Positions 15,401-46,562 of a stretch of DNA of 64,000 nt are shown piece by piece; within the stretch, counting starts at the first letter, position 1; every line of letters starts with the position of its first letter. Below the pieces are notes generated by a model. It saw only the letters and a program-made list of their open reading frames with translations. It did not search any database and was not told where the DNA came from. The stretch comes from Lingula anatina (taxonomy: Eukaryota > Animalia > Brachiopoda), in assembly GCA_051362555.1 (NCBI GenBank), contig CM120642.1:10478001-10542000 (forward strand), given 5' to 3'. Position numbers and translations under genes: made by a program.

Positions 15401-16244
15401 CCGTTCAGGCCCCCGATTGCCCTCTCAGACCGCCATCAAGAATTTCGTTATATGCAGAATGCGTGGTTCAGCGATGGTTTCTGGCTCTTTCACCCAAACT
15501 CAATATTTATGTCCATTTGAAGAAAACTGAAAATGAAGTTAAAGACATGTGCACGAATTCTTACTTTGTTTTAATCTTTGGTAAGAGAAAGTGACAAATC
15601 AGGCATTTTATGTAAATCAATGTAACTTTCGAAATTCATGCCTTGCTAGCATGAGGAATTTTCGTTTTCAGTAACGAAGGTTTAAGCTTATTTAAAAAAT
15701 AATAAACCATCATTAGGGCTCGACATTAAGGGTTGCCTTGTGCGTTTTTCAACCACTTTTTACACTCACGCAACCAGTTGTCCGACTGATTTTCTGGCAC
15801 GTAGAATGCACGCGGTCGAAACTTTGTACATTTTTTTTTTAATTAAAATCACATTTAAAAACACGTGTGTTGAGTAATCTAGAGGACACTGAAGCCCTAC
15901 AACTTGAAGCACTGCACATATGCCGAACTACATGTGTAGGAACTCACTGAAATTAATATTTACACAAGTTCAAGATAATTATTTTTCCACCAAAGCACGT
16001 GGATTTTGTGCAACCCTATAGGGTACGAGCAGCATTACGTCAATTCTTATATGGCGAATCACTATAGTTATTATAATGAGAAAATGTGTCTTGATACCAT
16101 TTGAGTTAAAACAGATACTTCACCCTAAAATGACAATAATAATAATAAAGTAACCACAAGGGTGTGTGTGTTTATGGAGGTATCCGAAGTTGTGATGTAA
16201 ATTCTGTAGGTAAACCTTACTGTTTTCAGTTTTGTGAAAACTGT

Positions 16245-16388
16245 TAGGGGGTAATTATCTTTACCCCTAGCTGATTCGGTAGGCGTGACAGACATTTAAG
16301 CCTCTTGAGCTGATAGCATTTTAATAGCGTGAACCCCCAGGGAGTTAGGTTGATCCAGTTGGATCGATCTAAGTATGGGAACCCAGTC
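16245..16388 (-). mobile_element. MITE family A, partial inverted copy
   Basis: Reverse complement reads GACTGGGTTCCCATACTTAGATCGATCCAACTGGATCAACCTAACTCCCTGGGGGTTCACGCTA, matching 11190-11250. Confidence 0.7.
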
Positions 16389-17085
16389 TAAGAGTTCAAG
16401 CATACATATGGCAGGATAAAAAGTTTCCCGACTTTTATTTTACAATATAAAGTACAACGAAATCAAATCACACCAGATAAATCATTTATAGTATATGTGT
16501 CGTATGATTCATATTCCCTGCGGTTTAGCTTGCCATCATTAGGATGCTGGTTTGCAAGATACAAGTAAGATATCTACCAAAAGATAAAATTGTTTTACAT
16601 CTCGTTTAAACAACTGAACTAGTAAAGGGTAAACTGTAAATTTGAAGACCTATTGTTACGTATCACGCACATAGAGTAGGCCTATTGGATGCATGGAAAC
16701 ACACCCACACGAAAGAAATTTATCCAAGTTTATCAAGTAAATTTAAGACTTAAAAATGCAAGCAAACAAAGGTAGGCCTACACATGTATATGTAAAAAAT
16801 TATCAAAGTCGCAAAGGCACCATACAAAAACATGCATCATTTCTCCATCTTACAATATGTACAATATAATACACATAATTATGTACAATATAATACGTAC
16901 TGATGTACTGTTTTTAAACATACATATTTAATATAAATATGTAGTTAGGCCCTAATATAATTTATTTGTGTATTTAACTATTTACTTGTTTATCTATATA
17001 TTTATACATTTTTTCACAACTCCTGAAGTATCCCATATTATGTTAATGTAAAGTCACTGTGGTGCTTTATGTCGGCTAACGTGGA

Positions 17086-20000
17086 TCACGTATGGGAAAC
17101 AATGCTTTTAGGCACTGTTCTGTCAAGAGAATGTAAAGGTGTGTACGTATAAGTAAACGGTGTCTCTGGTTCCTTATTAGGCTGTTGCTGTAACGGTTCA
17201 TAAGATTTTAAATGTTCGTTTCCTAATTTCTTGTCAATCTTATTCCCACCAGGAGCATCGTTGGACGTTTTGTCGGCGCTTGATAACAGAGCCTCTGAAG
17301 GAGAACAGGTTTCAGGGAAGATATAGGTTTTGTCATCTTCTTCACTCGAAGACCATGACAACCTCGGTGTGAGCGATGTTCTGTTGTAGTCAGCGACCTC
17401 GGCGTTACAATATTCTCCTGTTGTATATTCATCAGACGAATCATCGGTTGAATTATCAGAAAATCCGGACATTTCCTCGTTTTCCGGCGTACTTGGCAAG
17501 TCGAATGAATTGTTCAAAGAAGCTTGGGTAACACCCGCTCGTGCTGAAGGATAGGTATGGTAAAACGCGGGGTCAGTGTCAGTTGAAAAAGTTTGGCAAC
17601 CCTTTTCACTCCACGTGTGGTCATTCTTTAAGGACTGTGGTATCCTATTACTGGAGCCCGTGCCGGGTTCAGTAGCAAACAGCCCAGAGCCCGCCAACTC
17701 CCGCTTCAAAAAAGACCCCATACGAAAAAAATTCGGAGACGAAAGCGCTTTCTTTGGAATCTTAGAGAGACCTGGATTCATAGACTGGCAGTCAAACTGA
17801 GACCTGTGACTTGGCATGTACTTTGACGATCGCAGATGATGGTCTGTTTTCAATTTGTGTTTGACGCAGTCGTAACAGTAACATTGTCTACGTGGGAAAG
17901 TCTCGTCGCCAACCCTGCAGCAGAGACTGAGAGATTTCGAAGAGCGGATAACACGAGGAGTCGATGGGCGAGGATTTTGTTCGGCTGATGCTTTGGTTTG
18001 ACTCGCTCTCCCGCTGACCCTGGACCCAAGGTTGGGTCTCACAGTAGTATTAGGAAAGTTGGTAGTTGGGGGAAACTCACGACTGCGTCGTTTGTTGGCT
18101 CTGATGCTGCCAAATTTGTTGATGCAGCCTGGGGAAGACACACTTCTCTGAGTGTAAGAAGGCCGGTTGTGGCTTTTCAGACAGCAGGAACTGTCACACG
18201 TCATTGAACGCCTTCTGCCTGTGCAAAGCGATGTCTTAGACCCTTGATCACGATGGCAACGTTCGGAACTTGTGTTCCATACATCTGCATATCCACCACA
18301 GGTTAAACAACCTCGCGGAATTCTTTCTGTAACGCTACGTCTCGAAGAAGCGTGTCTGAAATCGCGGGAGTCTGGGATATCGTTGAGGGGGGCCTGTGCA
18401 TAAGGAAAAGAAACCGGCCTAGGATGCGGCGACTTTAAGCCAATCGACCCGTTACGACGTACATCCCCAAGCAATGAGCAACGGTCACTGCAGAGAGAGG
18501 TGCGAGAACACGCTCCCCGAGACTGCGTCCTAGTAATGCCAGTGAGCTGGACAGGGTGAGTTTGGACGCATTGATCACTGCAAAGAGAGTGGCACGACCA
18601 AGTCACCTGAGGATTTGATGACCACTCACCCTGGGAGTGAAACTGTTGGTGCTTGCAACACCTCGGCGGATGGGGATTGACGCCTTCATTTGGTGTACCG
18701 TTTTGCGGTGTTTGAAGACGTGTCGTCGCATACGCTGGGATGGACTCGATGGATTCGGCACTGTCAGCGTTGCTTGATTTGTTGTCGTCCAGGCAAAGTA
18801 GGACTTGCATAAATGTTCGTTTTTTGAAGTTTGTGCCTTCTGCTTGGTCCCCGTCGTGGTCGCCCGGTGGCTGGATCCCGGCTCGTTGTATGACTTTCAT
18901 ATTGGCCCGCCATTGTATACACCACAGTACGCTACATATGGTGGAGATGGTGACAATGACAAAGAGGAGCGTTAAGAATAAAGCTATGTAAAGTGCTTCG
19001 TTGCCTTTCAGGTTCAGTGCTCCATTTTCATCGCTAGATGTTGCCGGCGGCAGCTCGTTTGTGCTGTTGATGGTGTTTGATAACAGGATATTATTCAGCG
19101 TAACATTGCCCGACGATGCGCCATCGTATTGTATATCTGAAATTAAGGAGGATCTACACTATAAAACCCTATTTTCTTTCATGCAGTATAAAAGATGCTC
19201 ACGGATAACAAAGACACGAGTCACCTATCAAATTTCAAGACCGACAAGATGATACCCTGCCAAGATTCATCTGGAATAATGAAATGTTTTGCGTTTTGGG
19301 TTGGTGATAATGCGTTGTAATTATTTGTGAGTATTAGGTCTACTACAGTGTCAAGTAACAATTGATGTAAACATAATAATGCTTGGGCAAACAAATTCCT
19401 GTTATTTTGCAACTAGCACCCATATCAGCCAGAATTTAGAAATAAGTCGTCAGCAATCATTGTTCTTACTTCATTTGCACAAGTTATAACTCCTTGATTT
19501 GCATAAAATCAAAATTGAAGATTTGTTCATTTACATCATTAGCGCTTTTAATCCATGACCTGAATCACGTGATACCATTCTTTGTAAAGAAAAGGTGCAT
19601 TTTAAGCTTATTATCTGTGACAACGTTACATTTATTTATTTAAGGATTAGTCGCATTAAAGACATCAAGGAAAGGAAATACCAGAAATGCCACTGAATAT
19701 GTTCACTGAACTATTTATTTGTATTATCATAAATGTTTAAACTTTTGGCACCTTTGTTGTTTTGGGCTATATCTAAGTTAAGCAAATACGCTCGTGTGAG
19801 TGCGTAAACTTGTGTGCGCGCGTGTGTGTGATCGCATGAGAACTGGTAATATCTTCTCATTCAGTAATTTAAATTGTCAGAAACTTTCTCTTGTCTCAGA
19901 TGTTTTCAAACAAGATAACATCACTGCATGGTACCATTGTCGTTTAACTGGACACTCAGATCTAAACCATCTTGGGTATCTAATTTAGTTTCACTCAAAT

Positions 20001-20268
20001 ACTCTTTTCTTACAGCATCAAGCAAACTCAAATCAAAATGGTCATTCAAATAAAATGAGAAATCGAATATAGGAAGATGAATATAATACATTTTATCAAA
20101 ATTCAACTGTTGACGCTATTTTCCATGGTCTTTTAAGCAATCTCACTGCTTGTTTGCTAATACCAATTAAAACTTACCTGTGGTTTGTGACCTGTTGTTG
20201 GCCGCCTTTGACAGGATTGGCCCGAAACACAACATAAACGACCACGCGAATAATAAGGCTTTCCCCAT
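17086..20268 (-). CDS. Orphan single-pass type-I membrane protein, about 713 aa, two exons (20268-20178, 19136-17086)
   Basis: Exon 1 MGKALLFAWSFMLCFGPILSKAANNRSQTT (signal-peptide-like) ends in a phase-1 G|GTAAG donor. The acceptor TTTCAG|AT opens in frame with the 604-aa ORF and adds DIQYDG..ALNLKGNE plus the hydrophobic ALYIALFLTLLFVIVTISTICSGTVCIQW. A 2-kb stop-free frame in AT-rich DNA is unlikely by chance. Confidence 0.85.
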
Positions 20269-20425
20269 GTCTCATGAATTGCTGGCATTCTCGGAACCCG
20301 CATCCACACCCACGTCTCACTCCTCCGTTCACTTTACATCCGATACCCCGCAATTTAAAAACTGGCCGTGTTTTTTGGAACGTGACCTCGTGATTGAATG
20401 CCGTAAAGGGGGGTCGGATTTCAAT

Positions 20426-20640
20426 CACCCCATTTCCATAGATTAGATCGACCTACTTTAGATCGACCTAACTCCCTGGGGGTTCACGCTAAATAGCTGT
20501 CAGCCGGGCGGACACGAAAGTTAATTATCCCCTTACAGCTTGTAGTAGGCGGGACGGACATTTAAGTTGGATTATCTGAAAGTAATCTAGTGAGACTCCC
20601 CGCGGGGATAGATCGATCTAAAATCTATGGGAATAGAGCC
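20426..20640 (+). mobile_element. MITE family A, near full-length copy about 160 bp upstream of the orphan gene ATG
   Basis: CATTTCCATAGATTAGATCGA..CCTAACTCCCTGGGGGTTCACGCTAAATAGCTGTCAGCC..GATAGATCGATCTAAAATCTATGGGAAT, colinear with 11190-11399. Confidence 0.8.
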
Positions 20641-22978
20641 AATGAGTCAACATGGGCGTTTAAATTCTAGGGGAGGGAAGGAAGGGGGTGGGGCTGTGGT
20701 GGTTGGTGAGGTATTAAATTTTGATAGAAAATTTCCCAGCAGTTTGTTAACTATCCACTAACTATTATATTCATTTCAGTAAGGGCGCGACACTGGTATA
20801 TCTCAAGTGACGTCTGGTGTTACAAACATCCGTTATTTATTGAGGACACAGACATCTATACCCAAGAAATACCGAAAAATTTAACAAGGTGATTGGAATG
20901 TTGGCAAAAGTGATGGGGATGACAAAGGGGTCTCATGTTTTGGACACTTGAGAACGAAACCTTTTCTTGACTTTCCTGGGTTTACAAAGACCTTTCTTAC
21001 TGTAATTTTTCCGTGATGGGATATCATTACATTGGTTAAAAAGCAGAAGAATCAATGCTTGGTTAATCACCGGTGTTTATTTCAAACTCTGATATTCATT
21101 GTTTGAATCTTGAATGTGGATAATGCATGCTTCTTGGACAGCGCCGTGATTTTGATCGGCAAAATATTTTCTTTTACACAGTTCGTTTTGCTTTCGTATT
21201 AGACCAACATCATCATTATTTGTTTCTTTATCTTTTCTTGTGAGTAAAAGACAAATGTGAATATGTGAGAATTGAAAGTAAATAATTATTTTATGCAGTC
21301 ATGTCGTGAGTTGTAATGCCCCCGTCGTTTCCCTCCCCAATCTCGCTTATTCGTTCACGATGTTTTCTCTGCTAGACAAATTGCAATGTAGGGTAAATGT
21401 TGATACTAGGCCAAAGGTGACACGTCTTTTATTGTCGGAAACAGTTTTTAAAAGAAGAACCGCTCTCGGTCCATGTGATTTAAGCTACAGGTGTGAGGAA
21501 TTTAATATTTGTTTTCAAAACTATTTAGATTCTTTTGTCCAAAATTGCCAAAGCAATTTCTGTTATTGTTCTTATTTTGTGTGAACACATTCACAAACAC
21601 CAATAGACTTAAGAACTTTGGTATGTTGTTGAAATTACTTAAATAACTTCAACATTCGTCATCTTGCAATTCTTAAATTGGGTGTCAGGTTGCAAGGGAA
21701 TTCCCCTGTACCGAGGGCCTGAGGAATCTGACGTTCTTTATGTAAAGAATACATATATCAATAATATTTTCTTTCTTGAACCATAGGTCTTTATGTTAGT
21801 TTCAACGGTTAATTGTTTTGCCCACTTCTAAAAACGTTTTTATCAGTAAAACGTTAACCAAACACGGCCTGCCTTTAAAAAGCAGGCTCGTCCGTCGTTT
21901 CTTTTTCTTTGATATAACAGCGCCCTGATGGGCAACCGTATGCCTCTGTACCCACCAAAAATATCAACCCAGTGATTAAAAAGGAAACCCAGGTTTCCAA
22001 ACGGACGTGTATTCTTTAATTGCAGAAACATGCCTTTCCCGTTCGACCCTCATACACCTGGATCCATATGCGCTATTTCTTGGCAATGCCGATTTGAAGG
22101 GTTAAGTAAAAAAATAAAACTGGTTGACCTACACATAGTAGCCTATGTGCGTCTAGTGACCATGTGACACTCCATGGTAGGTGAGGGGGGAAAACTTACG
22201 AGAACAAGGCGTATAGTTAGGCCTAATATTCAATCTACTCGATCTACCAGTCTCTTTCCCCTGCCAGTATTCGTTCGGATTATTATGTGCTTGGTGAAAA
22301 AAGTATTTATATATAACGGCAAACTGACGGAGACTGTTGATACCTGAAATTAGGCCTACACCACTGAATACCCCCCCCCCCCCCCCCCATCCTCATCATG
22401 CCAGCCAGAAGAAAGTAAATCCTAGCTGCATCAATCAATCGTGGTCTTGTGATTACTAGTTAATCAATTTTTCAGTGCCTTTGATTATTATCTTTTATCA
22501 TTCATCAACTCCGATTGAGTAGAAACTTAAAATTTTCCGATGTAGTGTTTATCTTCTCTGTCGCAATCCTAAATGTAGTCTGCGCATGTGCTTTCGATCC
22601 TCTTCTTGGAAATGTGTCTCAGAATCCTCACCCTGCTATTAATTTGCATAATATAATATAGATAGCCTATTGCTGGGGCGAGGTACACGGTACAAGCAAT
22701 ATACGTGCATGCATCTGAATATTGCTCTTTCCTGTCGGCAATGTCGCAAAAAATGAGTTAGAGATGCTTTACCAACCTATTAAAACTGATGAATTCTAAT
22801 GAATACTCGTGCCGCTGTGGTAACACAAACACACACTTAAAAAGTGATGGACGCTAATCCGCTGTTCAAATTTTATATTCAGCAACTGAAAGGGAACTGC
22901 TGTAATCGGGTCAATAATCAGATCAACTTTCAAGCACAAAAGAGATAGTCAGTAGCAGTTGTGCCAATTTTCTAATGG

Positions 22979-23255
22979 TTTTTACTTGTTCACACAATGG
23001 ACAATAGAAGTGTCATCCCTACTGAACCAGTACTTTGGGGGAGATAAATGACTGTGGAATGATATGCTCCTGGTATCATTTTATTAACATCAAATTTCAC
23101 AAAAAAAAAATGTAGTAATTTTTACTTGTTCACACAATGGACAATAGAAGTGTCATCCCTACTGAACCAGTACTTTGGGGGAGATAAATGACTGTGGAAT
23201 GATATGCTCCTGGTATCATTTTATTAACATCAAATTTCACAAAAAAAAAATGTAG
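22979..23255 (+). repeat. Exact 137-bp tandem duplication (22979-23115 and 23119-23255)
   Basis: Both copies run TTTTTACTTGTTCACACAATGGACAATAG...AAAAAAAAAATGTAG and are separated by TAA. Confidence 0.9.
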
Positions 23256-23360
23256 ACCAGGCATTATAACTACTCAAGATGCCTACTTTGATTATTGATT
23301 ACTTGATTTTTATTTGATTACTCTGATTCAGGGAGTGACACTTCTATTGTCCATTGTGTG
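23131..23360. mobile_element. MITE with 25-bp perfect TIRs (CACACAATGGACAATAGAAGTGTCA)
   Basis: Left TIR at 23131 (also duplicated at 22991); inverted copy TGACACTTCTATTGTCCATTGTGTG ends at 23360; no clear TSD. Confidence 0.65.
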
Positions 23361-25287
23361 TACACGCATATTTGGACCTTTTATGACGCATATGCCTATA
23401 TTAAACTTTTTAAGTTTTTTTAATTTATTCAATAATTCTTTTTTAATGTATTCTAAGTTCTCTTTTGAACGAGCTTTTATAGGCCCCTATCCTTAATTTA
23501 GGCAGATCAAGGGAAATCCGTCGAAATAGAAAGTGAACAAAATGAAGTCGTCTGGCTACACTATAGAAGAGGGAAACCAAGGCACGCCATTTGGTTGTAA
23601 GGCCTACATACAGAAAGGAGATGTTGCGGTTTGTATCAAATAAACGCCCTTATTTCTATTTAAAGTTTTCTCCAAAATTCGAGCACCAAAACACACACCA
23701 CCGAAACACAAAGAGAGTCTGTTTAAAGGCGGCCTGGTGCAACTGTTTACCTACTTTTCCAGAAGAACTAAAATAATATTCTAACTCCTGAAATTAGCCC
23801 CAGATTAGCGGCACGGAGCCTCCCCTAGATCGGTGTATTGTACCCTAGGTTCTAGATTCCGGTATTGCCAGCTCGATCTTGATTTCATATATAACCAATG
23901 TCGCAATCACAAGGTATATTTAAGCTAGTTAGCTTTTACGTTGCTCTGACACTCAGGGTAGTGTATTGTCATCTAAAATCAAAAATAAGTCAATCAGGAC
24001 GTATTTCTAAGGAACAGCATAGACTTTGATTATAAGATGGAATACCCTAAATTGTCACAGAAAACAAAAATGATTTTTTCTTTTTTTTAACTTAAAGAAC
24101 GTATGGATGACATAATACTTTTAAAAACAAAATATACATCCATTTCACCAGCAGGGTTTAAATAATATAATTTTTTGCAACAAACTACTAAAAACGCAAA
24201 CGATTTAGTGTTGCCACTGAATATGTATTTAAGACTAATCTATTTCTTGTTTGTGTCGTGATTTATTTAGGATTCTTAGTAAGTTCAGTTTAACAAATTC
24301 ATGTTGAACAATTAATACAATGCAGCGAAGGTTTAACAATTTCTACTCAGTTGAAGTAGACGACCACAATTCCCAATAAAACAATATCCGATTCGGTGAA
24401 ATAAAGCATTTCTAACACTTAACTCATTGATTGTCTATAAATAGAGTTCTACTTGAACCAGAACAGCAGATTTTCATTTTCGCCTGGTCTTCAGTACAAT
24501 GCAAGTCAATATTGTTATGCGTGTATAAGTCAGTAATTCAAATATATGGATAGGATTTTACCCAGTGAATAAATCCACTTGCGACGAAAAGTAGAGATGA
24601 TGGTCACGGGACCGTGGCTTTGTGTACTCAGGAGCGATGACAGAAACGATTAGAAAAGTCAAAAACGGGGCCGCGATGTAAAAAAAATACTTGCAATGTG
24701 ATTGTATTTTCAAAGCTTTTGCATCTTCCATTTAATTCGTGTGGTTTTAAGAATCAATTGAGCCTTAAACCACCTTTCATCAATCCAGTAACTTGTTACA
24801 CCAGTAAATAAATACAAGCAGCTTTATTCTGAACAAATCCATGTACACTTCGAGCAATCTACACTATCGCTTTTCTCGTACTTCGGACTGTTTATTTTTC
24901 AAAATAGGTGGCAGTTTTGTGTCATTCTCCTTTAAAGACATCTTTAACTTGACCCATCCCTGCCATTTCCGCCTTGTGTAAAAATACATCTTTTTTAAAA
25001 AGTATTTTTGTGATTTATTTAAACTTCAATTTGACCCCGACTATTTTAGGTCGCATGTTTCAGTACTTTTTGTCAGAGTAGCGCACTTATATACAAATGC
25101 ACATAGATTACTCCTACTATATTGGCTTTGTGGCACCTGACCAATAAACAATGATCCGGGTTCACAAACACTCCGACGACCTAGAGGAACAGGTAAACAT
25201 AGTAAGCGTTGCCAGTGACATCCTCAGGTGTCAGGGACTTGCGAAATACGGTGCAAACAAGAAAGTGAAGTTCTTGAAGTGGTCACC

Positions 25288-25353
25288 AGTCGCTGGCAGT
25301 TTTATTTACATTATTTCTCTCCCACGCCCGGCCGCCAGTCTTGCACATCACAG
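25288..25353 (+). other. Candidate non-coding first exon of the ABCA gene
   Basis: GC-rich stretch ending in a strong donor CAG|GTAAGA; a pyrimidine-rich acceptor CTCTTCTCCTTTCTGCAG ends at 28123, 30 nt before the ABCA ATG. Confidence 0.4.
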
Positions 25354-28152
25354 GTAAGAGGATGACAATTAATGAGTAAGTTAATTGATAAGAATATGTT
25401 AAAATAATGTTTTGACTGTACAGGACAATGACAAGTCGGTCGCCGTTCTAACCGCTACTAGGGTTGTAAGAGAAACGTTATTATGCAATATCATAAAAAT
25501 GCGTTGCGTTAAAAAGAATTTTCCATGGTACATTTTTAGATACACGTTTAGTCAAAAAAAATTTAATTAGTTCAGTTACAGCTGCATTGCATTACTTGAT
25601 TCATCAGTCTATACTCCAGATGCTATTTTGATGATCGTAGTTCGAGGTAGTTTATCAGCATATGGCGAATTGTGTGCTGGTATCAATTAAAAAAAGTCCG
25701 TTTACTATAGAATAACACATCAAAAGATGAGATAACGCATGGCAACTGACAAGAATATTTAAGGCGATATTTTATAAAACATATAAAATCATCAGTTGTT
25801 TAAAAGTACTGAAATATAAGATAACGCATGGAAATCTCTAAAAAAAGAAAGGTGGGAACAGTCTGGAAGAATGCTATGGGTACAGTATTGAATACTACTA
25901 GGACGTAAGTATAAATATACGGTAAATTTGTCATTGGGTATTTAGATACATATGATGGATTTCTATCAAAATCCGTTACACAGGATATTTCATGCCGCAT
26001 TTCCCCTCCCTTCCAATAACAGGGGTTTGTATTATTTGATACAAAATTTAATCAATTCATTCTATTTTGCAACAGACTACAGAGAGCCCTGTAGTCGGAG
26101 GGGAACCTCTTCTCATGTTTTAGATTACATACGTCGCACTTTTTTTTCTTTATCACAAATGAAATGTATATTTGGTATCTCTGCTGCTTTAAAATAGGTA
26201 GCTGACTGACTGAAAAATGTAAATTAGAATCCCGTGGCATTGCAACATGGATATAAGCTTCAGGATGCAAACTATTATTTATTCATTTTTTGATTTCATT
26301 TTTTTTTTTTTTACCAAATTAGTGCTATTTTTGATGCGGACTGGTATTATGCTATATTTCAGTAACGATTGCGAAATAAATACCCGTGATCTTATTATAC
26401 TCCACTGTCTGGCGTAGCTTTTATTTCCAGTTAACTGATATTGCGAAATTCCCGTTGCGCAATGACCTGGGCGACCTGAAATTGCAGCTTTGAGCGTTAA
26501 ATGCCTGCTTTGTACCTGTATTTCTCTCCGCAAACGCTGACGAACTCCCTACGGGGTATTATCAAAAGATTTTTCTTTTGAATATTGTATATTTCTTTCC
26601 GATCCAGTCGTTAGTATAATTGAAACAGCATACGCTTCAAACAATTTTAGAAACGCTCCAGGTCGTCTTGGATTCGATCCCTGATGTTCTCAATTAAATC
26701 GCCTCTATAAAACCTGTAAAGTATTTCATAGCACATGATATTTGCATGTGTATACATAGATTTTGTTTTGTATATTTCAAAATTATTTGACATTTAGGTG
26801 AAAACGCCACTGACATACAAAGACAAATGAAAATATTAAGATGAATCTTGATAAATTCTCATATAAGAAACGTAATGTGTTAAAACTAAATATTTAGTTA
26901 AATAATATTCAGTTTTATTTTGTTCGGAACCTTAGAGCAATATAAGTTTGCCGGGCGAAAATGATATAGGAATGTCCAGGATTGACAAAATTTTGTTGAA
27001 TAATTCCTTTTTCTGAACATCTTTTTTTTTCAAAAGACTAATGGATGTGTACAATTAAGCTACCGATTATACTCCTAAGGATTTTTACATTCATCCAACA
27101 TTATAGCAGTGTGCTTTGGCGTAGGTTGATTGTGACCAAGCGGTGACCAAAGGAAAGAATATCAGCAGAAAATATTCACCTTAAACAAACTACATCAATG
27201 CATTTACACATGTACTAAGTATCCTTATCATTGCATTAATTTTTCATGATTAAATCTAATTATATTAAAATTTATAATTTAATGGCAACGTGGTTGTTTG
27301 TAGGTTGTGCCAATAAAAAAGAAAAAAAACGAAAACTATCGAAAATTGTCTCTTATAAACCGAGTTACTGACCATCAGATTCGAATTCAAAACCCAAGAA
27401 ATTCTTACAAACATTTATCTAAAACCGTCTTGCTTCCGTAGGCCAACTGTAATATAGATTTGCCTTCTTACTGTACGTAAAAGTGCAATTTACGAGTTAT
27501 TCCGTGAAGGGGATATAACAAGTCCTTGGGCATACACACAGGCCATCCACAACACATAGATAATACCAACATTTACAACAAAGTGATTTCCAAACTGATT
27601 AATTAATTAATTAATTGTAAATAACAGACTTGCCAATGTAAGGATATTCTGATACAAAATCTGACAAAAATTATTGTACCATTATATCTGCAACTGTTGA
27701 TATTTGCATTCTCTCGTTATTCTCTTGCGTATCTTTTGCCAGTTAGCTTGTTTTCGTCCTCAATAATTAAGCTAAATTGTCGAAGTCAAGTGCTACAAAA
27801 TATGAGTAGCTTTCCGCAAAATAATAGTGAAAAAAAAACATGAAACTGATAATTGTTCAACTGTTCAGAAAAAGTAAGAAATTAAATTTCAGAAACACAG
27901 GCGAAGGGATATCTTTCATTGCGTTTTCCCGACAGTGAAAGTCAACTACCGGGTACATGTACATGTGCATTTGCAGCATGGGGAGATATATTTTGACTGT
28001 CCTTTTTTCTGTTAATTATCTGGTTTTAATTTACGTTTCATTGTTATCACTGTTATTGGATGGATTGTGAATGATAAATATAAAAAATATACACAATTAT
28101 GAGACTCTCTTCTCCTTTCTGCAGTCAATTTTAATCACTGAGTGCGACACGC

Positions 28153-31100
28153 ATGGGAATAGCGGGCCAGTTAGGTTTGCTCTTACTCAAGGGGTTAACA
28201 CAGCAGCTTAGATATGCGGTAAGTCAAAAGTATAAAGAAGGAAAGGAAATCTGAAACCTTTTATCTGAAATTCTAACTGTCTAACTTTTGATTCAGGAGA
28301 GAGAGAAAGAGGAGGAGGGACAATGTCTGGTAATTAGAACGCAGTATTTCGTAAACGAAACCAAATTGATAATTATGTGTACAGAATCATGAGTAGTCTT
28401 TATTCATAATCATCTTACATTTTGTTATTAATATCTTATCATGGACAAAATTAATTTCCCTTTTCAGGTTGTTCTAGGAGTGAAGGTGGCATGGCCGCTC
28501 GCCATCTTTACAGCGGTGGTGGTGGTGAGGGTCTCTGTGCCCCCGGAAGAGAAGACAAATTGTAAGTCACCTCGTCGAAGGTTTTCAACAGTTTTTTTTT
28601 CGTGTTATTGCATGCGCCATAGCAGGAAATTTTCACACAAAGTGTCAACACGACCATAACGTAAAAAAAAAAATTATCATTATTAGGGTCTTATCTACCA
28701 ATATAAAAAACTCCCTCATCCAAATAAATACATGCTTATTGACATATAAAGAAATAGAACTTATATAAATGATTAAAATATAAACAAATACGAAAAAAAA
28801 AGATTAAATGAAAAAAATGTTATGTTGAAAATCGGCTTTCGACATTGGCACAATTCCACCAGAGGATAAACTGCACATTTTCCGAATAACAATAAGTTTT
28901 CAGCGTAAGTTTATTCATGATAAGTTTCAGGGAATATGTATTTTAGTTTTGGGGTCTAGAAGTACTTAGAAAATCCTTTGATTCTTCTTTATTGTAAAAC
29001 GGATGCCCCATAAAATATAATTTTATAACATGTCAAAGTCCAAGGGGACGCGGGAAATGTCAAAGGTGCCGCTGGAAGGGTGTCATAGGGGGATTTACAT
29101 AAATTATATGAGTGGGTTCGTTATTCAAATAGAAGAAGCATTTGAACAGCTCTTCTTTCACGATTTTTGAGGCTAGGGAAAGTGGATATCAAATCAGTTT
29201 TTATATTTTTATATGTTGAATATATTTAAAAAAATGAAAATAAATCGAATCAAAGATATTTGTTGATTTTCCACTGATGTAGCTATCTTCAAAAATAAAC
29301 TTTACCATTGATCAGTCACATGTTGGCCAAAAGCTAACAAAGCATGTGTTTTTACTGCTTATAGTCGAAGAATCCCTCATTGTTGTAGGCTACAATTATC
29401 AAAATATGTGCCATTTATAACTAATGTTATCATTTATTTCTTTACTATTTTCAGGTAACTATACTGTTTATTCCCTTCCAAACTCTGGTGGCCTGAGTTT
29501 TGTGCAGTCATTTGTCTGCAATATCAACAACACGTGTGCCAATGAAGAGACTGCGGCGGATAACACGGCGGCTGCGGGCACCGCTTCAGCTAGGTAGGCA
29601 TGTGAAAAAATTCCATAAACATATTAACGTTGTTTCGTGTAGGCCTAAACAAAGGGAAATTGATCGATAGGTGTGCATAAACATTTTGCTTGCTTTCCTT
29701 AGACATGTCATCGCCTACCTGTTTTTTTTTTTTTTTTTTGAGGGGGGGGGCGTCTGTTTTTTTCTACCGTTGATAAACCTCTTTTAAGAATGACAAAATT
29801 AACACTGTAACAGGCTTTGTCCTAGCCCCTTTTCACATCATGTGCTCCTTTAATCTGAATCGAAACATTTAGGGTGCGTTCACAGTGAAACTATTGTACT
29901 AGGTAGTTCGAACTAACACCGCCGGCACACTGGTTGAGTAGGCCTACAGTCAGCATGAGTCAGGTTAAAATTAAGGTTAACTAATCCGTTTAACTGGCCG
30001 TGTCGAGCCTGCCCCCCCCTCCTCCGGTTTCCGTTTAAATGACTCTGTTGCGTAATAGCAGGGTTATTATTTTATCTCTAAAAGCTACAGTCGATACAAA
30101 AAGGCTAGACGATATAAAAAGGCTAGCTATTTAAAGAAATGTAGGGCCTACTTGTACCGACTTATAAACAGATGCCAAACAAAATCCGTCCATTAACCTT
30201 TGTGTAATGCTGTACACAGACAAACAAACGGTAACGAAAATATAATCTCATTGTTATGTATACCAGTTTTTATGTAGATATGATTTGAACGTGTACAGCG
30301 ATAGCTAGGCCCTCGACCATGGGCCTGGCACAGCTAATGCAGCTGCACCGAGCGTGTTATGAGGTTGTGTTCTTCAGGTTGTCCACGCTGTTCGCAGAAA
30401 TGGAGCCGTTGCTAAATGACAGCCGGACACGTAGTGTCCTCAATGGGCTCCCACAGACAGCAACGCTTATCAAGGCCCTGGCCACAACGCTGGAGACACC
30501 AGAAGTGCAGGAGTTTCTAGGTTTGTGATTTGGCGTAAATTTTGCACTGAAGTGGTGGGGTACCACAGTTGTGCATTGTAGGCTACTGGTAAGCAGATAA
30601 GAAGCAGATAGCTTGAAGCTGTAGTCGAACAAGGCTGGTCGGTCAGTGCTTGGACATAATAACGGTCAGTGCTAGTTACAAGTATATATGTGCTTTGTCG
30701 TTTTCATGCTTAAAATAAAGGACTCTGAGTTTCTGTCCATAGTCTTAGACATCAGTAATTCAGAGATGTTTGATAGACGATTTTGTTTATGTTTATTCCA
30801 GGGAAAAATTGGACAGTGGCAGAGCTGTTTCGAAACCCTGATGAAGTGAAATCCTATCTAGTGACACAGCTAGGAGTGCTCCCAGATTATGTGGTGGATA
30901 ACATATTGGCTGCTACACTAAACATGACAGGGGTATGTATACATTGGGTGTCTATCATTCAGTGTACAAATTTTTGGGTACTACCTGTACGTTATAGCTG
31001 GCACATTTGGGATTTTAAGATGGGTCAGTGTGGATGCATAATTCCCAAATGAGAGATTGTCATATTTTCAGCAGGGTTTATGAAAAGAAGATATTTAGGC

Positions 31101-34100
31101 TTCGTTCACATGCAATGTCTATTTTCTATTTTCTATAGATTTTCTATTTTCGGTATGTCTTATGATCACGGTCTGTGCACTGAATATCCCGCCGCGTAAT
31201 TACTGGCAGCGCGAGCCAGTTACTTATAGTAACTTATAGTAACTGGCTCGCGCTGGCAGTAATTACGCCGCGGGATATTCAGTGCACAGACCGTGATCAT
31301 AAGACATACCAAAAATAGAAAATAGAAAATAGAAAATAGACATTGCATGTGAACGAAGCCTAAATTGTTTTCAAGATTTAGTATAGAGATGATAAAAAAC
31401 TTAAACTAAGTAACTATAGTGTTACATTCAGATTTATGAAATACAAGTAGGTGAAATGAAATCTGACTGCAATTTTAAATTAAAATTAAATAGAATCTAA
31501 CATATGTTGGATCATAGATTTAATTATGTGCTTCAAATTTTTTATTTTTCTGTAATTATTGAATATGTTTCCTTTCATTTTTTGGTCTTCAGCTGTATAA
31601 TCTGACTGGCAGCATCAACTTCAAGAGCATTGTGTGTGGTACAGACATGTTGAAGAAATATCTTGTCTTCAGTTCTGCTGTAGATGTCTCCGCTGTGTCC
31701 TCTAGTTTATGTGGCATACAAGATGATCTCATTCCTGTCATTGTGAATAAACTACAGACAGAAATTGATGTTGCAGAAATTGTCAGAATAGTAAGTATAA
31801 TTTCCAGAAACTGGAAGGCTGAGAGCCAATGTCATAAAATCTACTTCAAGAACAGATGCATTAATTGATACACTGACCAGGTATTGCTAGATGAAATTTG
31901 GTCTTCTTTTGATAACTTATTAATCTATCATTATAGTTCGATAGCAAAAATTTTGTAAAGTTTAGTTACTATCTTATACATATTTGAGACTGTTGACATA
32001 TATTTTCATTCAGCTTTGCAATATGAAAATATACATCATGTGTATTTATACTCATTATGGAATAGTCTCTAATTATTAATTTATGATCAACTTCTAATAA
32101 AATATTTGCTGTAAATGTAATTCTCCATTCAGGCTGCAGTGTTCAGTGATCTGTATGGAGAGTATACACTGGGAAAGAGCCTGAGAGATGTTGCCACAAT
32201 GATTGACACAGTGCTCCAGTTGGCCTCACTTCAGCCTTGGAACAGTGTTACGGAGTCTGACCTCCAGGCGGCGTCACTGTGGCTCAAGGCAGCCTCAAGT
32301 GTTGTCAGGTCTCTGGAGACTTCCCAGACACTGGATTTTACAAGGTCTGTTACAATTTCAGTACAAAGATGTATTTTTTAATTAAAAAAAACCTGTGAAA
32401 ATGTGAATGTGATGTGAAAATTTCATGATTTTTTTATGTACTAGAAAATATAGACAAATAATTGGTGTGGGAAGAATATTTTCATTTGTTTATGAGGAAT
32501 TAGAAACCGTTCTGTTTTACATGATTGCTGTAGATTTGATTTTTGCATGTATAAGTATTCATGAAAGTATTTTAAAATAAACATTATTGCAGTAAGTTGT
32601 CAAGTTTTCTAATATCAAGGGAATCCATTCCATATAATTTCCACATTTCTTGCTCACAACAAGAAACATATCAGTTTTTTTTTTCAGCCTGATAATCTCT
32701 CTGGCTATTTACTTGTGTTGTAATGATATATTTATATTTATAGCATCTCAGCCCTGTTAACGGCAGGAAGCTCTCACATTCAAAACAGCAGCTGGAGTTC
32801 ACTTGGTCCCATGGTCAATGTAGCAAACTTAATGATTGTCACTTTTAATGACCAACTGGACAGTATGAAAGGTACTGTAATAATATTGCAATTTTATACA
32901 GAAAGGTTAATGATATTCATATTTTCATTTTTATATGCATTTAAAATTACTACACAAAAGAATACCTATTTTTGATAACTGTATATATATGATATAATGA
33001 GCAGCACTTTATCTTTGAGATTGCCCATTTGTTTAATTTCATATAACAGCATGACTATCTGATGTAAATCAGTATTTATTTATGAAATTCTTAACATTGA
33101 AGGTGTACAGTGTTAAACTGATGGGTTTCTTTCTGTCTAGCTATGTACAACAGTTCCTCCATGTTTGGCAAGTTAATGAATTATACCATCATGTATGGGC
33201 CAGACTACATTGAAGCTATGGCAGTTACTATGCTGGATGAGCAAAAGGTACTAGTAGTAATATGTATTTATATATGATTATTTAGTATACAAATGTATGA
33301 ATAAAAATTGTAAAAATGCAAAGAATATACTCATACAAGAGGCAATTTAGCAATGATGCATTGTGCCATAGTCACAATACTGACGAACAAGCAGAACATT
33401 TGCTATTTTATGATTAAGCAGTTGTAACTGTGTATTTGTATGTATGTATGCAAAATGCATCGTACATTTGCACATATGGTATGTGCATTATAAGTTACGA
33501 TTTCATTCAGACTTATTTATACATTTGGAAAGATGAAGGTTTTGATCTTGGATATTTACTACCTGTCTCATTGAATCTTACACTCAGGTTATGAAGTTGT
33601 AGATGCTTTAAAGAATTTGGTGCCACTGTGAATTAGGAGTGCTATAAATATATTGCAGTTGCTGTAACTTTTCTTAATATTTGACATTTTTTATGTACTT
33701 AAAATTTTCCAGCTTACCCAACTAAGCTTAAATGCAGACATGATTGGGCTGTTCTGTAACTACACAGAGTTTGTGAAGTACTTCAGTCTGCCGTCTTATG
33801 TACCTGTGTCACAAATTCACACAGAGGTCTGCACCAACATGGCCGCCCTCAGTGCTCATATGACAGCTGCTATGGGTGGGAATTGGGCTACAGCTATGGC
33901 ACAGGTGATATAATCTGTTCTGATGCACAAATATCTCTAATGTTTGAAACATTGCTTATACTACTAGCTGTAAATAATATAATGGCGTTATATATTTTGT
34001 AAGTTATATCATACCTACAGTGTATGTATGAAAACACTTTGGCAACTGTATGGCAGTGGTGGGATCTTGAATATGTGCAGAAAAAAGTACTAGTGGATTT

Positions 34101-40100: not shown

Positions 40101-43100
40101 GGCAGACCACGACTGCCAACTTCACTACTCTACAGAATAGCATCAACCGGTACATGGCAGCTCTTGCTGCAGTCCAGTCCCTCAATATTAGCATCCCACA
40201 GTTTAGTCTGACAGGGAATGATGCTGACAACTTTAATGTCACCATGTGGCAGACCCTGGTCATGAGTTATCTACCAAGGTTGATGGAGCATGTAACTACA
40301 AAGTAAATATCTGCCCATACATTTTGTAGAATATTTGGCTTTGCTTTATACAGAGAAGATATAGAATTACATGTGATGCAGTTGTTTAAGAATATTCCTG
40401 TTCATATTAAGTTTCAATCAAAGAAAAATACATTTTTAGACAATTTAGGTTTTTGTTCTTAGGATGATTTCAATTAAATAGCTTGATGTTCTAGATTTTC
40501 ATCTTTTTGAAAGCAGTTATCAAATAAGATAATTTTTGTATGATAAATACATGTGTTTAAAAACTTAAACAATTAAGGTATTAATTTTCTTTTGAATTCA
40601 AAGATAACAAACATACCTATGTTTTTTATAGATAATATTTTTTAATTCGAAGTAGATTGACAGGTTTTCATTCCCCAAAGATCATAGACCATAGGGATGG
40701 GTATACTACAAATTAGTGATATGTCAATTATTTTATCTGAAACAAATTATTCATTGTTGCAGTATGGGGTCTACTTGTGATGCAGTGCTATCTTTGGTGG
40801 CCACTCAACATGGAGGTACGATGGACATGAGTGGCCTCTATGTTAACAGCCAGGTGACAGATATGATACACAACCTGGTGGTCCAAGGATCAGGTGAGAA
40901 ATTTGGATTGTGTTATCGATTTTATCTCTTTTGCCCTATATAGTTCTTAACAAAGTTCATAGCATGCTTTACAGTATTATTGTTTCATTAATTTTCAAGG
41001 TCATTTTTATTTCATAAAATTTATATATTTTGTAAAGATAAAGACCAGTTGTTAACATTTTATGTAACTTTATTATGTCAACAAAATTTCAGTGTGACGT
41101 TGTTTTACCCTTGACTCATTGATAATATAAACTTATAATATTACAAAAATGCAGAATGTACAAACCCACCATGTAAACCCAGTAGGATTTCAATGGTAAA
41201 AACCCGTAATAAAATCTCAGATTAAGCAGTTTCATTGAACAGAAACAACATCAGTGACTTACAATGACAGAATTTAATGTAATTTTAATAAAAGCTTTTC
41301 ACGTTAACTTTATTGCACATCAAAACAATCCCCAGTTTTCATCTTAAGTCATCAATTTCAGGTCTTAGTGGACTTCTCTGTGACTACATGTCAATGAATA
41401 GTACAGCAACTATGATGACTGCAATGGACATACAGACTAGGATTATGAATGTAAGTTAAACTGGGAGTGAGATAAAAGTCATATGCTAGCCAGTGGCATA
41501 ATATAAAAGTAACACAGGTAAATGATAAACATTCTATAACTTTCTAAAATGTATATTGATTTTGCTCATAATTTTTGTTCTTAAGAAAAAATAAATAAAT
41601 AAAAAATAGCAATGTCCAGTTCACTATGTTCTGACTCTGGATGAAGTATATGAACGACACTAGATGGATATAGCCAAGGATAAAGTACTTAGCAGTAACT
41701 GAGCCTTCAGTTCAACAATTTTATGATATTTCCATGCAGTGAAGATTTCCTTGTTATATTTTATCTAACATTTAATAAATAACCCTGTATTAAAATATCT
41801 CATTGGGTCAGAAAAATTTCTGTGATTATTTTTTTTATGAGCAATTCTGTTAAGTATAGTAAAACTGAAAGTATGACAATGAAAAATTGGTAATGAAAAT
41901 GAAAAAGATTACTGCTACAGTACCAGAAAAGGATGATGTCATGAACTGATTCATTATATACAAATGCCTTATGTTACTTCTCTGAGGTTAAAGAGAATGG
42001 GCAAATATGTCTTGGTGATCTTCATTTGATGAGTTTTCTGACTGTTCATCAGGTAATGTCTCCAGATTTGAAATTGTGTATCTTCTGACTCGTGCAGGCC
42101 GCCTGGGTTGTGAAGGTGTTGGTGCAAAGAGTAATCTATACAACCTTTGAAAAAAGCTGTGGTTGTCTTCAACACTGGCTCCAGTAAATGAGGATGAGAG
42201 TATGGATGCTGGAGCACTTTCTCTGCGATTTCTTGCAGCCTTCTGAAAGATATGAATAATGAATGAAATAAAAAATATTTGAAAAAAAAAATAGACAAAT
42301 TGATGGATAAAAATGGTTTAATTTTTCTATTTATTGTACATTCTTGTTTGCTGTTTTTGTGCTCTAGCCAGGGTCCAAAAGCTATTATTTTACTGAATTA
42401 AAAAAAAAAAAATTGTTTTTTTAGGATTAAAAATAAGAAGTATTAGAAAGTTGTACATAAGAAGGTAGTATTTTCAAATTGCTGAATCGGCTGTTTTGTG
42501 AAAAATAAGAAGTACCAACTGATCAGTCAAAAGTCAGTTTAAAAACATTTGCAGGTATTGATGAATAATCCATATATTCATGAGTCATTGTTTACCTAAG
42601 GAGTTGGTGCAATTTGATAGATTGGGGAAACCCCTTTCACCCTCTATAAATAGGTCATAGCTATATTCCAAGTTATTTAGTGAATAAAAAAGAATTGAAA
42701 TGTAAAAAAGAAAAGAATAGGTAAAAATGAAAGAGAAATATGGAAAATTATTATAATAGCTTAAATTATGTGGAATGTGACAAAATTTATTTGTGGAATT
42801 ATTTTTGTCTCACCTGTACTTTTTCATGGTGATCCTTGTACTCCATATTGAGGTCATCGCTTATTTTTCTCAAGTCAAGTCCTATCTCATTATGTGCTCT
42901 GGCCTGCATCATGGAAGAGACATTAGGCAAAGAGAAAGCCCTTCCCCTCTGCAAAATAATAACCTCTCCAATGGCTTGCTCAGTTTGAACAGAATGTAGT
43001 TGTCTATGAGGGGCATAATCCTGTGAAAGACTGTCCTTGAAGGTCCCTAAGTCACTGTACTGTCCCCCTGTAGCACCAGGTATAGCAATGAGGCTTGCTG

Positions 43101-46100
43101 CAGCACCAGCACATTCTTCCTCTTCCTCTTCTTCCTTAGTGTCACCAACAACGAAGACGGCATGCTCCTCGCTATCCATCATGTTAAGGTCTTACTCATT
43201 TCAAAACGCCTTAGTGGTCTTGACTGGTTAACCTGTTTGTGCATGTATATTTCCAAGCTTATCCTGACACCTGCTGATCATGTAATAACTTGCAGTGTTG
43301 AACTGGACTGCTTGTATGCCAAGTGTATTGCAACAGTGCTGTAGGTTATCTAAATACTTACAGTAGTATCTACTGCGTAGAGGTCTCTTCAGTTCAAGAT
43401 TATTTGTTTACTGTACCTGCATATCAGGATAAGTGACAGCCAAATGTCAGCTGTTCACCTGGTAGTAAATGAATTTTTAACACTGAGTTTTATAATGATC
43501 TTTCACTGGTAACTCAAGTGACCTTTATGTTACCTCAAGAATTAGGCCGCCTTTTGTTTATGTGCGCTGGTGTTTTGGATCTGCTGTTAATCCTCAATAG
43601 TACTTGTATCCCTAGGCACTGCTGAATGGAATAATACACCTAGTGTCACCTTTTCAAATCATCTGCGGTATACATAAACAGGTATTATTGCCCAACTGTG
43701 AACATTTGCATCAATAGAAAAGTAAGATCATTGAAACCATAGGCCTCTAAGTTCTGAATGCCTCTGGAAGCTTGAAGTCACCTGTATTTATATACCTGTC
43801 AACTCAGCATTGTCATGGTCTATAAATAGCCCGCTTTCACCTGGCCAGAAAATTAAACCCCATTTTAAGCAAATAAATTTATGTCATCAATTTTTGAAAA
43901 TATGTTCATCCATCTCATCTAAAATCTATGTTAGTAATTTGATAGGTGGGTGATGATAGCATGATTTGTTTCATAGATTTATCCAGAATTTTAATAGATA
44001 AGAAGGGGATTACCAATTGCTCGTCACGTGTAAGGTTAGATGTCATGTTATTGTTTGGTTTGGCAACCTGGTCACATTCACATTTAATAGCTAAGAGTAT
44101 TTAAAAACTATTGAATGTTATGCTAATGGCTTCTATTAGTGAAATTAGAGAGGTATATGCTCAAAAAATAAATAGAAAATAAGTTCTTTTCTGCTTATTC
44201 GTTAATTTGAAAGTTTAAAAGTGTATTTATTTCTGTTCCATTGCTATCAGACACATGATTACACTAAGATAGAATCAGTTTTGGTCTGATAGCACCAAGT
44301 GTGAACTAGTCCCATAAAGTGGATGGTCACGTGATATTTCCAAACTGATCAAAGTGCAAACGGAATAGCTACCTGTTCAGGTTATTGTTTGTTAATATAT
44401 TTAGCTATAATCCTAATAACTAATTCCCCCCACAAGAAGTAAATAAAGGGAGTTTTCTATTTCTGGACTGTTAGATGGTTTTTACTGAGGGTTCTAATTC
44501 TGGACTCAGCAAATACAAAATGTGTGTTTTTTTTTTTAATTTCTTCCTGGTAGAGAGCTTGGCAGAACATATATTTATCAGTGATTTACTAATCATGTTT
44601 GAGGGCAGCTATTGCGCAGTATAGTATGGCATAAGGTTGTGCAATCTATATGAAGTAAAAAGTTTATAACTTTTAAGTTGGTTATTAATTAGAATAGTTA
44701 TTAAAATAGGTAATTTATGTGTTATGTTAATTTTTTGTGATTCATTTAAGATTTAAAAAGCATAGATGTGTCATGCAATTAACCACTGGGAAAACCTCCC
44801 ATAGTCATGTGTCATACATTTAATCATATTCCAACTTGGAGCAACCCAACTTTGAGTTTTCCATGATTACATGCCTTTGACTTCACTATTACTTACTTTA
44901 CATAAAAGTGAATTATTTGAAATTTTGACCCTGAAAAACAGGAACTTTGTTGTCATATACATTACTTTTACTTCATGATTTGATTTTGTCAATGGGGAAA
45001 ACTTATCAGTTTTTCAGATACATAATTTTTTGAGTCACTGAAAATGCTTTTACAATTTGTGTTGTTTTAAATGTATGGAATAGAACTATAAGGTAGCTTG
45101 CTTTTCAGATTTGCTGATACCACTCAATAGGAATGTTTTAATTTTAAGAATTTAAGACTTAAAAAATTACAGTTATTGTTTGTGTAAATTTTACAAGTGT
45201 TCCCATGCACTGAAAAGATTGAGTCATTACAATATTACACCTTGATTATCTTGCATTTGTGTTTAATTTTGTGTTCACAAATTTTTTAACCCCTGATTTA
45301 TTTCTTGGTTTTAAACATGACAAATGTGAATAATCTTTTGTCATGAATATAATTAAACACTTAATTTATTTCAAGCAAGAAACGGAATGAGCATATTAGA
45401 GTCCCTCCATCGTAGTGGTTATTTTGACTTAATTGATGTAAGGCCAGCTCAGGTGAAAGATAAAGGTGTGGCTTGTGTTAAGCAAGGGAAGAAATAAACA
45501 GACATGAGGTTTTTCCGTGGAAATGTGGAATTGCGCATTTTTTAAATTCAATTCTGATGGTTCCTGGGATGCGTCAAGGTCTGCAATGAAATCTGATTCA
45601 GAGATTTTTTTTTTTAGTAAATGGTGATCTGTTAACCATCTCTCAAGTCTAAATACCCGCCTCTTTCCGTTGTCTTCTCCTGGCATCAGTCACCTCAAAA
45701 TTCAAAAGCTCAAGAATTGAAACTTTGTCTTATTTTAGATATTATATATAACTACCAGTCTGAATGGGCTTTCCAGGTACATCACTGTACTTGTTTCAAC
45801 TTAGTTTGTACAAGGTGTACATCATTAAGTTGTTACACTAATTTCAGTGACGAGCTAGAGAATTGACCCCAGAACATCAGAAATTGACCCTGCAAATGAA
45901 TTAAACTGCAATTGAACTGCCAGAAAAATGGATATGTAAATAGCCATGACTATAGCATTCAACAGGCTCAAGGAGATGGCTAGAGGTTCCGAATGAGATC
46001 TATTCATAAAATGTGTATTTTATTTTACTGGAAATTGTCAAGTTTCATCTTCACATCATGGCATGACTCATTTATAACACTGTTATCCTAACCCTTTTCT

Positions 46101-46562
46101 TTAATGGTCTTGGTGTGAACCACTGTATAGTCGTACAATTCAAATACTTTTTTCTTTTAGATTGTACAAGTCCTCAGTAACTCCAGCATGCAGACTGGAA
46201 ATGACACCAACAGTACCAGCAGCACCATGACTTTACCATTCTCCTGTAGTGCCACACTGGCTAAAGAGACAGAGATCAGAAATTACATCACCAACTGGAT
46301 TAACAGCACCAATATCACTGCCCTGGCAATGTCTTGTATGCCGCAGAGTTATGGGGACATGTGAGTATCGGAATGTTCTTCTACAAACTGCAGTCCATTA
46401 GGATGCTTTTTATTTACATTAACTATGACATTCTTATTTGTAGACAATGATTTACATCTATAAATCTTTAAATGCAAACACTAAAAATTGAATGGGTAAA
46501 GTTTACTTATAGACTTCTTTAAATCTTCTAAATGAAGCTGTCCCTGGAATATACTATTTTTT

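Follow-up and report, generated by a model that had tools for sequence, protein, structure and literature searches.

The 64-kb window from Lingula anatina, i.e. the whole stretch of 64,000 nucleotides analysed here, contains a transcribed gene of two coding exons that lies antisense within an intron of an ABCA gene. Its product is likely a disordered, BIM/BMF-like protein of the BH3-only class (BH3, Bcl-2 homology 3), predicted to be silenced by phosphorylation. We assign a probability of roughly 0.6 to this reading as a whole. It agrees in part with an earlier reading of the same DNA (in the following, the original prediction), which had seen here a BH3-only protein uniting the controls of BAD with those of BIM and BMF.

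The gene is read on the minus strand, where an open reading frame (ORF) of 207 codons is formed by two coding exons joined across a GT-AG intron. Its parts and its surroundings are located as follows.

43182–42814, minus strand: coding exon 1, 123 codons, residues 1–123, comprising an acidic N-terminus, the LC8-like site, the first basophilic site and the BH3.
42813–42243, minus strand: intron, 571 nucleotides, GT-AG, phase 0.
42242–41988, minus strand: coding exon 2, 84 codons and stop, residues 124–207.
43183–43740, minus strand: 5′ leader, transcribed, apparently unspliced, with upstream ATGs (RNA depth, ATG list).
41600–41987, minus strand: 3′ untranslated region (UTR), lower end approximate (RNA depth).
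41451–46160, plus strand: host ABCA intron containing the BH3-like gene, 4,710 nucleotides, GT-AG.

The clean two-exon ORF of about 207 residues proposed earlier was confirmed; the predicted splice is the sole GT-AG pair among 16 donor/acceptor pairs tried around these sites; the GC content amounts to 0.46 in exon 1 and 0.42 in exon 2 and to 0.26 in the intron. Likewise, exon 2 is read in a frame other than the one called in the ORF track (41969–42298); an alternative minus-strand frame (41969–42397; 142 codons from stop to stop) runs uninterrupted over the whole exon. This choice of frame follows from the phase-0 junction, which is read in the window itself.

The nesting within an ABCA intron holds as well. 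Host exons 41362–41450 and 46161–46360 splice into a single open frame over the 4,710-nucleotide intron, and one exon on the side of the nucleotide-binding domain matches human ABCA7, ABCA1, ABCA3 and ABCA4 with E-values of 4e-25 to 7e-22. In a homolog search with an ABCA exon, none of 431 candidates was retained. The intron is the longest of 19 roughly mapped introns between 28.5 and 46.8 kb and more than three times as long as any of the other 18, which range from 256 to 1,350 nucleotides. The host exons, all on the plus strand, start at about 28.5 kb (28468) and continue beyond the end of the window (64000). No transposon-like repeat was found when sought in the host intron, and the position of the BH3-like gene inside ABCA is most likely incidental. 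In the host itself, the first extracellular region is very long; encoded by dozens of exons spread across some 28 kb, it is rich in Met, Thr, Asn and Ser, and Cys-bearing segments recur in it.

Transcription was assessed in nine RNA runs deposited under the species label, six of which were aligned (6–30% of each run). The read counts were low, namely 21, 7, 25 and 30 on 7 kb and 5, 44, 47 and 38 on 3 kb (four runs each). The reads covered approximately 41600–42242 and 42814–43740 and skipped the intron in six runs, except for about 21 nucleotides in run X2; the transcript, spanning approximately 41600–43740, is longer than the interval of 41988–43182 first noted. Within the intron, the depth was zero over 42309–42712 in four of four runs and over 42340–42807 in four of four runs, and the bin 42713–42813 held no reads in X7, X8 and X9. 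For the bin 42208–42308, the depth in X8 corresponds to about two and four reads of exactly 35 nucleotides, ending at 42242. Moreover, the mate orientation in X1 and X4 was opposite to that of the host exons in X1, as predicted for an antisense RNA.

On the debit side, no splice joint was obtained at a threshold of three reads, and only two reads, both from X8, join the exons. These connect 42245 to 42820 with four letters in between; the joint lies where the intron is predicted, given that the bases at the three positions past 42242 match either side, but counted literally the reads hold seven bases where six are predicted. If real, the extra base would shift the frame of exon 2 in the divergent lineage; it would also be explained by an altered codon 122 together with a slip in the adjoining A-run, or by a counting offset. 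In addition, the mate orientation was mixed in X2, and the assignment to the minus strand therefore rests mainly on the orientation of the GT-AG pair. We consider it very likely that this is a real, expressed gene.

All motifs named in the original prediction (HSVQTE, the BH3, RKIS, three RxRxxS/T sites and an amphipathic stretch) were located by position.

42979–42996, minus strand: HSVQTE, residues 63–68, candidate LC8/DYNLL site anchored by VQT (pattern match).
42925–42948, minus strand: RGRAFSLP, residues 79–86, candidate Akt-type/14-3-3 site with Ser84 (pattern match).
42838–42888, minus strand: BH3 motif, residues 99–115, with I100, L104, I107, D109 and L111 (PDB, Pfam, Atlas).
42210–42233, minus strand: RNRRESAP, residues 127–134, second candidate Akt/PKA/14-3-3 site with Ser132 (pattern match).
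42126–42158, minus strand: amphipathic segment, residues 152–162, candidate membrane-binding or second-lock sequence (hydrophobic moment).
42075–42092, minus strand: RVRRYT, residues 174–179, third basophilic site, without Pro at +2 (pattern match).

The hallmark of a BH3 motif is a set of four hydrophobic residues on one helix face, the last two of which enclose an acidic residue (PMC9171138). The protein displays this hallmark with I100, L104, I107 and L111 and with D109, in register with PUMA peptides. In BH3-only genes the motif is described to lie inside one exon, the second-to-last (PMC7022251), and here the BH3 is located wholly in the second-to-last coding exon. The composition falls on the disordered side (mean hydropathy 0.425 versus a boundary of 0.434; 64% of the residues FoldIndex-negative), and a single-sequence AlphaFold model, with a pLDDT (predicted local distance difference test) score of 38.5, was uninformative and too poor for a fold search. 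The best 19-residue hydropathy of only 0.87 indicates that there is no transmembrane helix, while the hydrophobic moment peaks protein-wide at 0.77 in the strongest amphipathic window (151–161). In proteins of the Hid/RHG type, an Ala-led motif binding inhibitor of apoptosis (IAP) proteins follows directly after the initiator Met; the present protein starts with Met-Met-Asp-Ser and lacks such a motif.

Similarity searches in the ESM Atlas, PDB and Pfam, which are blind to motif patterns but individually weak, all read one short helix and are hence not fully independent, converged on BH3 proteins. The best Atlas match was a BMF cluster (0.90; 208 of 256 features common), and a BIM cluster scored 0.89; all nine rows listed bear the names or families of BH3-bearing proteins (BMF, BIM, PUMA, PXT1, BIK and a BAK fragment), and eight of the ten best family matches agree on BH3-type proteins. 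When the 34-residue BH3 region was compared with PDB, seven of seven matches were BH3 peptides, six of them from PUMA, and the best PUMA peptide shared 11 of 19 residues (E 0.011); with full exon 1, BH3 peptides made up six of eight matches. Pfam placed the PUMA family (PF15826) over the BH3 with E-values of 0.06–0.1 in three query versions. BH3-only proteins are intrinsically disordered and lack both the Bcl-2 fold and the BH1/BH2 regions. Neither exon yielded a Pfam or PDB match to the Bcl-2 fold, and the Pfam profiles BMF, Bim_N and Bclx_interact gave no match. The exons were used singly as queries, so that weak matches spanning both could be missed. For exon 2, the Pfam family DUF1179 (E 0.2) and V-ATPase E and others (E at least 0.65) were discarded as chance matches. 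With exon 1 as query, four matches among 1.84 billion representatives were rejected, being repeat or coiled-coil proteins whose scores sum weak stretches (best pairwise E 0.83, for P0004).

Several results speak against a BH3-only protein. An Atlas score of 0.9 is attained by 4–10 of 100 shuffled proteins, the PUMA match in Pfam attains 13–14 bits as compared with a cut-off of 26.4, all family matches remain below threshold, and the exact 123-residue exon 1 gave no Pfam match at all. BAD is absent from the Pfam, PDB and Atlas matches listed, the nearest being BMF, BIM and PUMA. Homologs of exon 1 were confirmed for 0 of 13 candidates of 67–216 residues and 0 of 399 candidates of 217–2000 residues, and a metagenome scan for its relatives confirmed 0 of 266 stretches. 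Furthermore, BH3 patterns are described as poor predictors in the absence of biochemistry (PMC9171138, PMC7022251). Weighing three blind searches, the disordered composition and the exon position of the BH3 against matches that all lie below threshold, we conclude from the sequence that the product is probably a BH3-only protein; it is filed as BIM/BMF-like, not as a BIM/BMF ortholog, and falls under none of the BAD, BIM or BMF profiles.

The same evidence bears on the possibility that the protein is a disordered kinase substrate and 14-3-3 client, in which the helix resembles a BH3 by coincidence or has a function outside apoptosis, for instance in autophagy or metabolic control. Such a view would accommodate the sub-threshold scores of every BH3 match, and BH3-like motifs are also present in proteins without an apoptotic role, for example Beclin-1 (PMC7022251). 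However, four hydrophobic residues and an Asp in register, 11 of 19 identities to PUMA, Atlas matches to whole BMF/BIM-type clusters and the fitting exon position render it quite improbable.

The motif patterns were composed after the sequence had been seen, and their chance expectation was estimated from 20,000 shuffles of the protein. The strict BH3 pattern arose in 0.07% of the shuffles, at least three RxRxxS/T sites in 0.025% and at least two RxRxx[ST]xP sites in none (0/20,000). When the window is translated in six frames (127,996 residues), the strict BH3 pattern occurs once, in the BH3-like gene only, as compared with 51 occurrences of the loose Lxxx[GSA]D, and two of the four RxRxx[ST]xP sites fall into the BH3-like protein. 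Within the BH3, residues 105–108 read RKIS, which places Ser108 in a basic context directly before Asp109. Ser84, Ser108 and Ser132 are spaced by 24 and 24 residues, and the two candidate 14-3-3 sites thereby bracket the BH3. The LC8-like site is much weaker than the basophilic motifs, the pattern being found in 2% of the shuffles and QT[DE] alone in 7%. VQT has been recognised as an anchor for LC8 (PMC12017986), and the motif has been given as [D/S]-K-x-[T/V/I]-Q-[T/V]-[D/E] (PMC3078936); VQTE fits positions −1 to +2, while Asp/Ser at −4 and Lys at −3 are absent.

These figures also concern the reading as an ordinary BIM/BMF-type or lineage-specific BH3-only gene, in which the LC8, 14-3-3 and PKA motifs, or some of them, have no use or evolved independently, a frequent event for short motifs in disordered proteins. 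In its favour, the LC8-like pattern is obtained in 2–7% of the shuffles and lacks the Lys at −3, RRxS makes a stronger PKA site than RKIS, and BAD is missing from the matches listed; BH3-only proteins have moreover been termed polyphyletic (PMC11463336). Against it stand the rarity of paired RxRxxSxP sites, both in the shuffles and in the six-frame window, and the constancy of the motif cores in divergent reads described below, next to codons 136–159 with their 11 substitutions. We regard this reading as unlikely.

The reads of X7–X9, filed under the same species label, differ from the window at many near-fixed sites and are mostly 90–99% alike to it, none of them reaching 99%, which suggests a divergent population or a cryptic sister lineage and provides a natural comparison. 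The following results refer to the 40 variants listed out of 73, which include 23 coding substitutions. L104, I107, S108, D109 and L111 of the BH3, S84 and VQTE are unchanged, and the RNRRESAP region (42205–42242) contains no variant. At RGRAFSLP, the change in the Arg79 codon is silent and Phe83 is replaced by Leu. Within the BH3, K106R converts RKIS into RRIS, a fuller PKA site. Five of five indels lie in the UTRs, outside the coding sequence, and none of the coding substitutions generates a stop. Exon 1 has accumulated nine substitutions in 369 nucleotides. A hypervariable patch (42135–42204, codons 136–159) holds 11 substitutions, 10 of which replace the residue; mid-exon 2, including part of the amphipathic segment, is fast-changing, yet its hydrophobic positions are kept.

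The substitution counts themselves do not argue for purifying selection on the protein: 7 of 23 are synonymous as compared with a neutral expectation of 6.2, the share in exon 1 (5 of 9, P ~0.10) is only suggestive, that in exon 2 is 2 of 14, and the lack of stops is unremarkable (P 0.32). For exon 2, the substitutions favour no frame, including that of 41969–42397. Together with the failure to find a homolog, the possible extra junction base in the divergent reads and the upstream ATGs in the leader, the neutral synonymous share would be in keeping with a non-coding or decaying antisense transcript, the ORF of which is untranslated or no longer selected. This explanation is opposed by the intact spliced frame of 207 codons, its raised GC content and its cluster of rare motifs, as well as by the confinement of indels to positions outside the coding sequence and the few substitutions in exon 1, and we judge it very improbable.

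Returning to the preferred reading of a phosphorylation-silenced BH3-only protein, the following mechanism can be envisaged. Residues 99–115 would form a helix in a Bcl-2-type groove, with I100, L104, I107 and L111 filling four pockets and D109 providing the acidic contact; occupancy of the groove would free Bax/Bak and lead to mitochondrial apoptosis. Under growth-factor or nutrient signalling, kinases of the Akt/RSK/PKA type would phosphorylate Ser84 and Ser132. Phosphorylation of Ser108 within the helix would block groove binding, as does that of Ser155 in mouse BAD, which lies within the BH3. A 14-3-3 dimer would grip the Ser84 and Ser132 sites and cage the BH3, a step that we infer because 14-3-3 commonly binds two sites on one client (PMC12017986). 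LC8 bound to VQTE may dimerise or stabilise the protein, as with BIM and BMF, and the amphipathic segment at residues 152–162 may assist in membrane or partner binding. In the weakest step, loss of Akt activity would also raise transcription via two FoxO-type sites. Judged by sequence features, the BH3 is likely to be functional, control by kinases and 14-3-3 is somewhat favoured, and the chances of LC8 binding are even; like the grade given above to expression of the gene, these estimates are a matter of judgement.

The two FoxO-type sites are exact matches to one 8-mer.

43404–43411, minus strand: GTAAACAA, candidate FoxO element in the leader (exact 8-mer match).
42588–42595, minus strand: GTAAACAA, candidate FoxO element in the intron (exact 8-mer match).

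They represent the only two perfect sites in the 64 kb, where 5.5 are expected in shuffles, and both lie in the BH3-like gene. In mouse Puma, the same 8-mer is contained in a functional FoxO element located in intron 1, as described in PMC2118330, and for Bim, FoxO sites are reported both in the promoter and in the first intron (PMC4695108). It tells against such an input that the looser FoxO pattern is barely enriched, with 4 of 61 sites in the gene versus about two expected; the FoxO test was moreover one of several patterns tried. A FoxO input to transcription is therefore treated as a possible lead only. A search upstream of the gene for a paired p53 site found none, just one half-site. 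With respect to translation, an upstream frame of 21 codons (43244–43179, minus strand; second ATG at 43199) terminates on the main start codon, and further upstream ATGs in the leader of about 550 nucleotides could dampen or gate translation.

Elsewhere in the window, the observed/expected ratio of CpG is 0.13–0.25 in gene bodies from 32 kb on, and a 16-kb block without CpG depletion (16000–32000; 0.72–0.95) is flanked by depleted gene bodies. Such a mosaic footprint of methylation is typical of invertebrates and fits the invertebrate origin assumed in the original prediction. A retrotransposon with long terminal repeats (6474–10461, plus strand) encodes gag-like, protease and reverse transcriptase/RNase H/integrase parts in three separate frames, in a domain order that we take to be Gypsy-type. 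At 17089–19158 (minus strand), a single-exon frame of 690 codons shows a hydrophobic segment close to the start, ends in a long tail rich in Ser, Arg and Cys, and yielded no Pfam match. Protein kinase exons are present at 328–1179 (plus strand; Pfam PK_Tyr_Ser-Thr, E 1.4e-14).

Among known systems, vertebrate BMF and BIM (BCL2L11; PF15185, PF06773, PF08945) provide the nearest Atlas clusters. In BimEL, LC8 docking is found together with an Akt site (Ser87) through which 14-3-3 is recruited, as described in PMC2871139 and PMC4695108. In contrast to BIM and BMF, the LC8 site here lacks the basic residue at −3, two RxRxxSxP sites flank the BH3, and about 45 residues follow the amphipathic segment. 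The BIM core LRRIGD has a Gly before the BH3 Asp (PMC4695108), where the BH3-like protein has a Ser.

Mouse BAD uses Ser112, Ser136 and Ser155 (PMC1368972). Like BAD, the present protein has several basophilic serines, two of them in 14-3-3-type contexts, and a BH3 serine in a basic context. However, the two 14-3-3 sites of BAD are both N-terminal to its BH3 serine, by 43 and 19 residues, whereas here one lies 24 residues before and one 24 residues after it, and neither a sequence nor a feature match to BAD is found among the matches listed. We know of no LC8 site in BAD. PUMA (BBC3) has the closest BH3 sequence, but the match is confined to the BH3. Its C-terminal segment as described in PMC10185343 is similar to that found here in being short, hydrophobic, Pro-flanked and charged, without a true tail anchor; Puma also shares the 8-mer of its intronic FoxO element (PMC2118330), but not the want of a paired p53 site.

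In view of these comparisons, the proposed hybrid of BAD and BIM/BMF controls stands in part. Basophilic motifs in excess of chance and RRIS in the divergent reads make BAD-like control plausible, whereas no match to BAD was obtained among the matches listed, and hybrid control is overstated as unique because BimEL already joins LC8 docking with an Akt site that recruits 14-3-3. Predicted invertebrate BH3-only proteins are displayed in Figure 5 of PMC8998228 for cnidarians, an annelid, a brachiopod, molluscs, echinoderms, a hemichordate and amphioxus. Together with EGL-1 and the schistosome and Hydra proteins, these candidates belong to the same class, being disordered with the BH3 on one exon (PMC8998228). 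Their identification likewise relied on a weak resemblance to Bim, Bad or Bmf, and they are compared here by their description only; section 2.4 of that paper does not describe LC8 or 14-3-3 motifs for them. In the literature searched, which covered few subscription papers, no description was found of an invertebrate BH3-only protein that unites LC8 and 14-3-3 motifs, nor of one that has the 14-3-3 sites in a pair and a serine switch in the BH3 as well.

A further, tentative and unlikely proposal is that the gene represents a lineage of all-in-one BH3-only proteins that has been overlooked in invertebrates and would keep the layout of a single bilaterian ancestor whose controls were later split among BAD, BIM, BMF and PUMA. 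This layout would comprise an LC8 tether, a paired 14-3-3 cage, a kinase switch in the BH3, a PUMA-like BH3 and tail, and a FoxO input.

BH3-only triggers constitute a missing tier of apoptosis in most invertebrate annotations. According to an oyster survey, BH3-only proteins are yet to be identified in molluscs (PMC8917759), the published invertebrate candidates await experiments (PMC8998228), and it is debated whether BH3-only proteins share ancestry or originated repeatedly (PMC8998228, PMC11463336). With an expressed gene that has predicted controls of both the BAD type and the BIM/BMF type in a single chain, these two questions become testable. Antisense nesting in the intron of a large gene may help to explain why BH3-only genes have been overlooked and, if the proposed control holds true, the link of growth-factor signalling to survival through Akt and 14-3-3 would predate the vertebrates.

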